A DNA stretch of 64,000 bases from an uncultured Planctomycetia bacterium (GTDB lineage Bacteria; Omnitrophota; Gorgyraeia; Taenaricolales; CAZCCH01), in contig CAZCCH010000007.1 in NCBI GenBank assembly GCA_964497315.1, positions 4,503-68,502 of the forward strand, given 5' to 3'. Shown here piece by piece: positions 6,001 to 7,699 of this stretch. The notes below the pieces were generated by a model. It saw only the letters and a list, made by a program, of their open reading frames with translations, did no database searches and was not told the DNA's origin. The position numbers were made by a program, and so were the translations under genes. How positions within the stretch are numbered: the stretch's first letter is position 1; the number at the start of each line of letters is the position of its first letter.

Positions 6001-7699
6001 TGACTGGGATATCTATTTTGCTAAGTCTATAGATTCAGGTAGCAGTTTTAGTGAGAGTAAAAAGGTATACGAAGACTTGGGAGGGTTTAATCAGAGAAGG
6101 CCTCAGATTGCAATCGACAGTAGAGGCAATATTTTTATAGCGTATCAAGGTCAGGATGAAGGAGGCAATACCAATATTTACCTTACAGCCTCAAGTGATG
6201 GCGGAGAGACATTTGACTCCCCCAGGCTGATAAATGAAAATCTGCTTTTGGCAGAGTCGCCTTCTATAGCCATATCAAACAACAATCGTATACATCTGGC
6301 CTGGACGGAGCACACAGAAGCAGGTAATTGGGTAGTATACTATACTCTGTTAAGAAATTTTTCAGCCAATGCCGGTGAGATAATCAGGGTCGACGATGGA
6401 ACATTTACTAGTTTTAGAGGTACGCCTTTACTTAAACTTACTCAAAGCGGAGATCCGCATGTTGTTTTCTGTGGCAATAAAGGCGCAGGCTTTCATATAT
6501 ACCTTTCAAAACAAGAAGGAAGTGATTTTACTAGCCCTGTGCAAATAGATGCAAGCACAGCAGTCGCTGACTCACCAACCTTTGACATTTCTGCGAATGG
6601 AAGAAATATCTATGTAGCATGGGTGGACACAAGAAGTAGCAAGAAAGATATATGTTTTGCAAAATCCACAGATTCCGGAGCAAACTTTACAGAGACAACC
6701 CAAATTACTGATGATTCACTGCAGTTGGATAAAATATCGCCGCGTCTTTGTATAGACTCTCAACAGAAGGTGTACCTGGCTTGGTCTGACATGAGAAACG
6801 ATGACGGTGATATTTACTTTGCGCAGTCTTTGGACGGCGGTACATCTTTTGGCACCAACATATTAATAAACGATGATGCAGGCAGTGCCTGGCAGGGAAA
6901 TCCAGTTCTGGCAATAGATAATTCAGCAAAACATGTATATTTTATCTGGTCAGATGCCAGAAACGAAAAAATCGAGGTATGCTTTAGCAAGAATTCAACA
7001 GCCGAAGTCCATTCTTCTAACTTAATAGAGCCTGAAGAAGGTGGTTCAGTTACAGTTGAAGAAGGTTCGGATATTGAAGGGACCACTGTAACCATACCGC
7101 AGGGTGCCCTGGAGGTAGATACGAATATTTCTATTGGCCAAGTGGATAGTCCGCCGGAATTCACGACATTGGCCAACATTGCATTCGTCGGTAAAGCAAT
7201 AAGCCTGGGGCCAGGAGGTACAACATTTGGAGCTCCAATAACGATAAGGATTCCATATACGCAGGCAGATTTGGATACAGTTGGTGTACCTGCGGCAAAT
7301 TTAGCGATATATTACTATAACGAGACGACGACAATTTGGGAAAGGTTGCCGAGTGTTGTGTACCCTACGTACGTGGAGGCCCAGATAGAGCATTTCTCAT
7401 TGTTTATCTTAGGCGGTGAGGCTGTATTAGGCGGCCTTTTGTATAACATGGGCCTTGGGAGTTGTTTCATAGCCACCGCTGCCTATGGTACGCCTTTAGC
7501 AGATGAAGTTGGCATCCTTTGCGAATTCAGGGATAGGCATTTATTGAAAAATGAATTAGGCAGAAGATTTGTCAGGTTTTACTACAAGACGAGCCCGCCA
7601 ATCGCAAAGACTATATCGAAAAGCTGGCTGCTGAAGAAAATCGTCCGGTTTTTACTCCGGCCCATAGTGGAGGTTGTAAGCAGATGTATTACAATGTAG
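1..7699 (+). CDS. Giant multidomain secreted/surface glycosidase-like protein (5'-partial, >=2562 aa). Domain order: CBM-like N-terminus; clan GH-A (GH2-type) TIM barrel; FN3; cadherin/Ig-like; ~90-aa tandem repeats; PD40/TolB-like beta-propeller; FN3 x2; BNR/Asp-box beta-propeller; Cys-containing C-terminal tail.
   Basis: ORF 11..7699 opens with TTG and the frame stays open to the window edge, so the 5' end is probably outside. Acid/base-like WSVGNEQN and nucleophile-like ITEFGVDAY match the GH2 pattern (E. coli beta-glucuronidase TEYGVD). FN3 signatures TLTWD..[16 protein letters not shown] and [16 protein letters not shown]. PD40-like SPDGAKLAF and [10 protein letters not shown]. Asp-boxes [32 protein letters not shown]. 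Tail [30 protein letters not shown]. Confidence 0.8.
   Translation, partial: [2565 protein letters not shown]
2156..2218 (+). repeat. ~62-nt near-identical intragenic direct repeat, partner at 3005..3067, marking ~90-aa tandem protein modules
   Basis: ttccaaaaagat(g/a)accagataaagataatctgcacaccaacaga(c/t)ggagaagatgaggg(a/t)ac at both sites; encodes FQKD(D/N)[16 protein letters not shown]. Confidence 0.85.

Follow-up and report, generated by a model that had tools for sequence, protein, structure and literature searches.

A stretch of 64,000 nucleotides from an uncultured Planctomycetia bacterium (placed by GTDB in Omnitrophota, lineage CAZCCH01; contig CAZCCH010000007.1, positions 4,503 to 68,502 of the forward strand), hereafter the window, begins with the 3' part (2,565 codons) of a gene for a giant surface protein at 2..7699 on the plus strand. 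Here we analyze the Cys-containing tail at the C-terminus of this protein together with the domain before it and the genes around it. The open reading frame (ORF), delimited by the ORF list, its translation and Pfam matches, lies in frame +2, is open from nucleotide 2, where the window's 5' end cuts it, and runs to a stop codon at 7697-7699. The tail quoted in the initial annotation is present exactly as given at the end of this ORF. That annotation counted about 2480 amino acids (aa) ahead of the tail, which agrees with the ~2,487 aa encoded within the window before the tail Cys (codon 7463-7465) but not with the complete protein: the same gene in metagenome 3300009374 of the Joint Genome Institute (JGI; source contig Ga0118720_1000422, 69 kb) has a product of 3,758 aa.

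Pfam and the tail model together resolve the giant protein into a GH2-like TIM barrel, fn3 and Ig-like domains, PD40/BNR beta-propeller repeats, a ZU5 domain and a terminal CFI-box. The ZU5 domain is encoded at 7049..7429 on the plus strand. It is followed on the same strand by a Gly-rich flexible linker (7412..7462), by the CFI-box proper (7463..7669), and by the last nine residues, EVVSRCITM, with the stop codon (7670..7699). The linker has a predicted local distance difference test (pLDDT) score below 50 and is poly-Gly in relatives. The "hydrophobic stretch" previously noted before the Cys is the local form of this low-confidence, Gly-rich linker and not a membrane segment. The next gene does overlap the giant ORF, as had been noted, with an ATG at 7684 and an overlap of 16 nt.

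Searched against NCBIfam, the last 99 aa match one model, NF041770 (CFI_box_CTERM), at 99.8 bits (E=5.6e-29), well above its curated cutoff of 40 bits and over the whole 69-position model (profile 1-69/69); no Pfam family matched the tail at E<=0.1. The domain comprises 69 aa from the invariant Cys of CFIATAAYG. Counted from this Cys, the tail is the last 78 residues of the giant ORF, and the box ends nine residues before the stop codon. The NF041770 signature, including FRD, YY..SPP.A and a late Arg, is present throughout except that the conserved LR before FRD reads LC. The window tail has extra Cys residues, one in place of this conserved Arg of LR.FRD and another near the end. Judged from its sequence, the tail is almost certainly a CFI-box-CTERM domain, a family already named by NCBI. 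Therefore, the recurring tail on large exported proteins, many from anaerobes, which the initial annotation described without naming, corresponds to a curated family. A regular-expression search and a six-frame hidden Markov model search of the 64-kb window returned this one CFI-box and no second copy. No paper was found in the searched literature under the names CFI-box-CTERM or CFI-box or the motif CFIATAA(YG).

The anatomy of the box was examined in 86 tails taken from CFI-box loci and in 142 top representatives from a profile search. Invariant or near-invariant positions include L..(R)FRD, a Gly, YY..SPP(I)A and a late Arg. The box contains a lone Cys in 75 of the 86 tails; therefore, this residue has no conserved disulfide partner. 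Gly occupies the position immediately before the Cys (-1) in 93 of the 142 representatives, where it usually closes a poly-Gly linker; elsewhere the position is variable and sometimes Pro. The distance from Cys to stop is 73-118 aa in 85 of the 86 tails, so that the domain is C-terminal in these. Two architectures can be distinguished. In type A, with a Cys-to-stop distance of 98-118 aa, the box is followed by a transmembrane (TM) helix and a basic cluster; this arrangement accounts for 116 of the 142 representatives and 49 of the 86 locus tails. Type B consists of the box alone and has a Cys-to-stop distance of 73-95 aa. At 78 aa the window tail is of type B. When its last nine residues were compared with the 86 tails and the 142 representatives, no hydrophobic 19-mer, TM helix or basic cluster was detected after the box at the C-terminal end of the window protein. 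Because neither the TM helix nor the basic cluster follows, the window tail is, by its sequence, a member of the minority TM-less subtype.

AlphaFold2 predicts four helices for the box (pLDDT of 80-90, starting at the Cys) and disorder in the linker that precedes it. A Foldseek search of this tail model against the PDB returned nothing (best E=7), and the tail sequence profile had no PDB match at E<=10.

The family is very large. A profile built from 78 tails was searched against 1.84 billion cluster representatives at 50% identity and retrieved 31,168 proteins with E<=1e-3, of which 24,397 have E<=1e-10; nearly all of the top 150 carry the match at their extreme C-terminal end. The exact peptide CFIATAAY gave at least 586 confirmed matches in contigs sampled at one genome per species. 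The tail is thus decisively not confined to this protein. Bacterial carriers include Omnitrophota, Nitrospirota, Dehalococcoidia, Planctomycetota, Saccharibacteria, Firmicutes, Gamma- and Deltaproteobacteria and Aminicenantes, and archaeal carriers include Thermoplasmata, Ca. Ethanoperedens and MSBL1. Members from archaea, from the candidate phyla radiation (CPR), from Firmicutes and from cultured Syntrophomonas all pass the NF041770 cutoff. In the peptide search of species representatives, the closest relatives of the window tail among the matches listed come from Omnitrophota. Several single genomes hold 2-4 loci, and tandem CFI genes occur. A viral origin was considered and rejected: only 4 matches were obtained in 2.9 million viral contigs, and the family is not phage-enriched.

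The passengers joined to the box are highly varied, with 107 Pfam families among 89 proteins; most are of extracellular types, and InlB B-repeat, PKD, Ig-like, beta-propeller, CARDB and TSP3 domains predominate. An N-terminal signal-like segment is present in 62 of 70 complete large members. Some carriers depart from the common pattern. Four metagenome proteins of 115-163 aa (P0008, P0016, P0032 and P0072) contain only a zinc-ribbon or HNH (IscB/Cas9-like) domain and a TM-less CFI-box, and lack a signal peptide. In the cultured Syntrophomonas palmitatica JCM 14374 (locus L056, 9404-10318), a prepilin-type N-terminal cleavage/methylation domain (TIGR02532, above cutoff) is combined with a CFI-box and a TM helix, which makes this protein a pilin-like carrier of the box in a cultured organism. 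In a Nitrospirota locus (L006, 1013-2146), the CFI-box and TM helix run in frame into an extension of ~270 aa that resembles an outer-membrane protein (OMP) and ends in ...GTRIGL; the extension is weakly similar to the window ORF at 8304-9101 (pairwise E=1.3e-4 over 29 aa), and either a fusion of genes or an overlooked stop codon may account for the arrangement. In each of four long representatives (P0080-P0083) the CFI-box motif occurs twice, once internally; these proteins may come from tandem CFI genes that were read through, or the internal copies may be genuine.

Upstream of the linker, the window protein contains a segment that was assigned to ZU5 by Pfam and by profile matching to the PDB. 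As a single sequence it matches Pfam ZU5 at E=0.015, below the cutoff, and all of its PDB matches are ankyrin ZU5 domains. A profile of seven orthologous segments matched the ZU5 domain of ankyrin-1 at E=7.9e-8, five further ankyrin entries at E<=2.8e-5 and ZO-1 ZU5 at 0.018. These matches identify the segment, at the sequence level, as a ZU5 domain. A homologue search with the ZU5 segment alone returned no matches. The ~130 residues before the linker are homologous across the Omnitrophota/Planctomycetota subgroup that has this tail, and in this subgroup the box always follows a ZU5 domain with His-x-Ser/Thr and has a gspC-like gene behind it. On the last strand of the domain the His is invariant and a Ser or Thr stands two residues on in all seven sequences; in the window the motif is His-Phe-Ser (HFS, codons 7391-7399), 24 residues before the tail Cys. 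HF|S is also the autoproteolysis site of ZU5 domains of the PIDD/UNC5CL type, and the window HFS occupies the same position. HFS may be an autoproteolytic release site. ZU5 has been described as an autoprocessing peptidase in bacterial toxins and is also present in other large bacterial surface proteins (Zhang et al. 2012, PMC3482391).

Downstream, the giant ORF overlaps a gspC-like gene (7684..8307, plus strand), whose product appears to have an N-terminal membrane anchor, an HR-like domain and a C-terminal PDZ domain. GGAGG lies 10 nt upstream of the ATG at 7684, and metagenome gene callers choose the same start; the gene is probably co-translated with the giant ORF. The PDZ domain matches PF00595 at 25.1 bits (Pfam cutoff 23.2). 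The GspC_delta model of NCBIfam is reached at 64 bits against a cutoff of 150, and the Pfam T2SSC model is not matched directly. The assignment to GspC comes through a homologue next to another CFI-box gene (locus L014), which aligns with the window protein over both the HR and PDZ regions (BLASTP E=2e-18) and itself passes Pfam T2SSC and PDZ_2; the corresponding protein of locus L061 passes T2SSC.

Conservation of this neighbour was assessed by clustering 908 ORFs from the window and from the 80 loci with the most similar tails. Paralogous CFI genes aside, a single neighbour recurs, a gspC-like protein of ~260 aa at position +1. It is found in the window, in four Omnitrophota loci (L001, L014, L020 and L080) and in loci from Planctomycetia (L005), Brocadiaceae (L016) and Aminicenantes (L073), and its spacing from the CFI gene ranges from a 16-nt overlap to a 177-nt gap (-16 to +177 nt). 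Two loci place the box near further genes of a type II secretion system (T2SS). In a Nitrospirota locus (L061), the CFI-box gene lies inside a gspC-gspD-gspE-gspF...pseudopilin operon, and the 4 kb downstream of the CFI-box gene in L020 hold a PilM/N-like gene, a secretin, a second gspC, gspE and gspF. The lone gspC-like gene of the window is probably a cargo-specific paralogue. The ZU5 domain and the gspC-like gene, neither of which the initial annotation recognised as such, are the features actually conserved with the tail subtype of the window.

The third ORF of the series (8304..9101, plus strand) overlaps the gspC-like gene by 4 nt and encodes a signal-peptide protein that resembles an outer-membrane beta-barrel (Pfam OMP_b-brl, E=6e-4, below cutoff) and ends in Phe. 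Its lack of conservation in related loci leaves its membership of the same unit uncertain. No homologue of the window ORFs from 8304 to 13784 was found near other CFI-box genes in the 80 related loci. In L001, a gene for apolipoprotein N-acyltransferase Lnt (LNT_N + CN_hydrolase; 3861-5309) lies two genes 3' of the closest Omnitrophota CFI-box gene; this is a single case. Lnt acts on N-terminal Cys residues.

The wider setting of the gene matches what has been reported for its lineage. Giant genes of Omnitrophota are flanked by T2SS-like loci, pilZ genes, solute-binding-protein (SBP) transporters and glycosidases (West-Roberts et al., bioRxiv 10.1101/2023.11.21.568195). The genes downstream in the window are of the same set, namely a PilZ gene, an SBP transporter and GH94. 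This gene set and the Omnitrophota origin of the closest tail relatives suggest that the contig probably belongs to that phylum. The preprint on Omnitrophota giant genes (bioRxiv 10.1101/2023.11.21.568195) makes no mention of GspC or PDZ.

Taken together, these features lead us to propose, tentatively, that the CFI-box is a module for envelope retention or docking, carried by a Sec-exported surface protein associated with the T2SS. The signal peptides of the large members, and the TM helix and basic cluster that follow the box in most of them, suggest an extracytoplasmic, juxtamembrane position of the box, where it would hold the C-terminus of a Sec-exported protein at the surface of the cytoplasmic membrane. 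The giant protein would be exported through Sec. The CFI-box would then retain or present its C-terminus, possibly via contact with the GspC-like TM/PDZ protein that is co-translated with it. Subsequent self-cleavage of the ZU5 type at HF|S could uncouple the passenger of ~3,600 aa from the tail, and the freed passenger would be handed off to a type II secretion-like apparatus or displayed on the surface.

Several observations weigh against retention or docking as the role of the box. Bacterial and archaeal tails are 50-64% identical, and many polar residues are invariant (T, Y, R, D, YY, S, R); this degree of conservation suggests that the box does more than a passive anchor needs. Its net charge is not conserved, ranging from -5 to +11, and a conserved positive charge, considered as a clue to membrane binding, was rejected on the same range. 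Small members (85-166 aa) join a zinc-ribbon or HNH domain to the box and have neither a signal peptide nor a TM helix. Because such members exist, the box probably works in the cytoplasm as well, which would fit a self-contained function better than a compartment-specific anchor. Since the window tail itself is without a TM helix, its retention is purely inferred. The gspC adjacency is found in only 8 of the 80 related loci, and other T2SS genes are not present in this window. On the side of the ZU5 domain, the PDB profile match spans only the N-terminal half, and an AlphaFold2 model of ZU5 plus tail, computed from a thin alignment, is poor for ZU5 (pLDDT 30-70). The N-terminus of the giant protein was not seen: the contig start at L088 is truncated or chimeric, and two metagenome scans were empty. 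Neither a structure of, nor experimental work on, any CFI-box member was found in the PDB or in the searched literature.

An alternative is that the CFI-box acts as a cleavable C-terminal sorting signal of the classical kind, comparable to LPXTG, PEP-CTERM, PGF-CTERM or the folded C-terminal domain of type IX secretion, and that a dedicated membrane enzyme cuts or transfers the protein at or near the Cys. We regard this as a plausible but rather unlikely reading. The strictly C-terminal position, the Gly-rich linker before the Cys, the many paralogues per genome with their tandem genes and the highly diverse exported passengers are all what such a signal would show, and strong conservation of the motif suggests a conserved recognising partner; the "-CTERM" in the name given by NCBI points the same way. 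That most members have a TM helix and a basic cluster behind the box also fits, but the signature Cys is separated from that helix by ~70 residues and a folded four-helix domain, and TM-less variants exist, the window tail among them. The recognising partner did not emerge from gene neighbourhoods: no protease, transpeptidase or other enzyme recurs within 10 kb of the CFI genes in the 80 loci, and there is no exosortase- or archaeosortase-like gene among the annotated window ORFs. The family moreover extends to small-genome CPR bacteria and to DPANN/MSBL1 archaea. A role confined to extracytoplasmic sorting is difficult to square with the members that lack a signal peptide and carry zinc-ribbon or HNH domains.

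The retention model can be carried further for the subgroup to which the window protein belongs, in a form that we consider distinctly unlikely as a whole. In Omnitrophota, Planctomycetota and their relatives, a ZU5 domain with HFS, a Gly linker and a TM-less CFI-box might form, together with a dedicated co-translated GspC paralogue, a previously undescribed device for cargo tethering and hand-off. At the inner membrane, the box would dock the C-terminus of a very large exported enzyme or adhesin to the GspC adaptor dedicated to that protein. Self-cleavage of ZU5 would then release the passenger, to be exported through a secretin or displayed on the surface. In the same proposal, the invariant unpaired Cys of the CFI-box family may perform or receive covalent chemistry common to bacteria and archaea, such as lipidation or a Gly|Cys acyl shift. 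No description of a ZU5 domain, a CFI-box tail and a gspC neighbour in combination was found in the searched literature, which covered the CFI-box name and motif and the preprint on Omnitrophota giant genes.

Such an acyl shift is also central to the idea that the CFI-box is a self-processing module, in which the Cys attacks the preceding (usually Gly) peptide bond and an N-to-S acyl shift frees the passenger or makes a reactive thioester. The invariant, partnerless Cys lies exactly at the N-terminal boundary of the domain, and many other polar residues are invariant. The box is found with and without signal peptides or TM helices, as would be expected of a self-contained activity. Its G|CF junction resembles the Gly-Cys-Phe junction of Hedgehog proteins and inteins. 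However, the predicted fold is all-helical and only 70 aa in length, unlike Hint domains, and it offers no invariant His, Asn or Thr-x-x-His-type catalytic partner. The residue at -1 is Gly, within a flexible linker, in the 93 representatives counted above, but this position is otherwise variable and sometimes Pro. A separate domain of the ZU5 autoprocessing type already lies 24 residues upstream in the window protein, and self-processing of this kind has no experimental precedent. We hold it to be very unlikely.

The initial annotation had raised a functional link between the tail and radical-SAM/SPASM, PqqD and HprK-like genes in the same window. This cassette is real and lies at 58442-62166. 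It consists of a ScmF-like radical SAM/SPASM gene, a PqqD-like ORF of 97 aa, a PqqD-like ScmD, a ScmE-like radical SAM/SPASM gene and a ScmC/HprK-like gene, assigned by their best NCBIfam matches to ScmF, ScmD, ScmE and ScmC, and is preceded by a gene of the geranylgeranyl-reductase family (57327-58475). All scores are below the equivalog cutoffs (ScmF, 363.7 bits against 400; ScmE, 163.9 against 400; ScmD, 37.1 against 100; ScmC, 36.9 against 125); therefore, the cassette is SynChlorMet-like and not a curated member of that system. No obvious precursor peptide for it was identified in the window. The cassette stands at the far end of an exopolysaccharide locus of ~30 kb (27892-57038), which is marked by a BBP2_2 porin, Poly_export/SLBB, a Wzz-GNVR tyrosine kinase, Wzy_C, many GT4 glycosyltransferases and methyltransferases, a FemAB-like gene and Bac_transf. 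This locus itself contains two radical SAM/SPASM genes (40974-42062 and 51315-52262) and a B12-radical SAM gene (53016-54464), and a second ORF resembling HprK-related kinase B lies at 47056-48147.

Between the tail and the exopolysaccharide locus lie several other groups of genes. Four consecutive ORFs on the minus strand (687, 335, 279 and 243 aa; 9121-13784) have no Pfam match at E<=1e-3. Conserved on all source contigs, these ORFs are absent beside other CFI-box genes. A gene of the HTH_3 + SocA/Panacea antitoxin type (14799-15602) overlaps an ORF of 130 aa without a Pfam match, and the two (14799-15975) are probably a toxin-antitoxin pair. A sugar ABC transporter follows, beginning with an ORF of 748 aa in which a solute-binding protein (SBP_bac_1) is fused to an ABC permease (BPD_transp_1; 17394-19640). 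Behind it come a second permease, a ROK regulator, a GH94 phosphorylase, PGM and the PilZ gene (27218-27655).

Peptides that contain Cys are common substrates of SPASM enzymes with PqqD-type chaperones. What PqqD/RRE chaperones normally bind is the N-terminal leader of a short precursor, rather than a C-terminal domain such as that of an exported protein of 3,758 aa. That the Cys-containing tail is a substrate of this cassette seems highly improbable and the link is not supported: the two share a contig but are 50.7 kb apart with unrelated operons between them, the cassette closes an exopolysaccharide locus that holds three further radical-SAM genes, any radical-SAM gene within 10 kb occurs in only 2 of the 80 related CFI-box loci (~24% identical to the window enzymes), and the CFI-box family is enormous and spread across many phyla.

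The window tail is in itself one more member of a family that NCBI already models. The family is one of the larger uncharacterised C-terminal modules, with ~31,000 clusters at 50% identity in bacteria and archaea and an invariant lone Cys. The locus adds two testable handles for one subgroup, the ZU5 domain of the self-cleavage type 24 residues upstream of the box and the conserved, operon-coupled gspC-like partner, and this context is a useful new lead for that subgroup. It ties the subgroup to the T2SS-flanked large or giant surface proteins of Omnitrophota, with their presumed role in attachment to prey or hosts, and the tempting but false lead of the radical-SAM cassette is removed.

Three kinds of known system can be compared with the locus. 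Autoprocessing ZU5 domains (PIDD, UNC5CL, the FIIND of NLRP1/CARD8 and the ZU5 of bacterial polymorphic toxins and surface proteins) resemble the window domain in the ZU5 profile match and in His-x-Ser/Thr on the last strand, whereas the ankyrin ZU5 domains that are its best matches are themselves not autoproteolytic. The tripartite signals (LPXTG/sortase, PEP-CTERM/exosortase, PGF-CTERM/archaeosortase and GlyGly-CTERM/rhombosortase) share with the CFI-box the C-terminal place, the diverse exported surface proteins, the several paralogues per genome and, in most members, the TM helix and basic end. They are, however, short motifs abutting the TM helix, whereas the CFI-box is a folded helical domain of ~70 aa that is TM-less in the window. 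Where the T2SS is concerned, we know of no cargo with a C-terminal tail as its signal. The arrangement in the window nevertheless recalls T2SS-adjacent cargo genes, such as pulA by the pul operon and the giant genes of Omnitrophota by T2SS-like loci, in that a large protein of the glycosidase or adhesin type adjoins a gspC-like gene; it differs in that only a lone gspC-like gene, scoring below the curated GspC cutoffs, follows the cargo.

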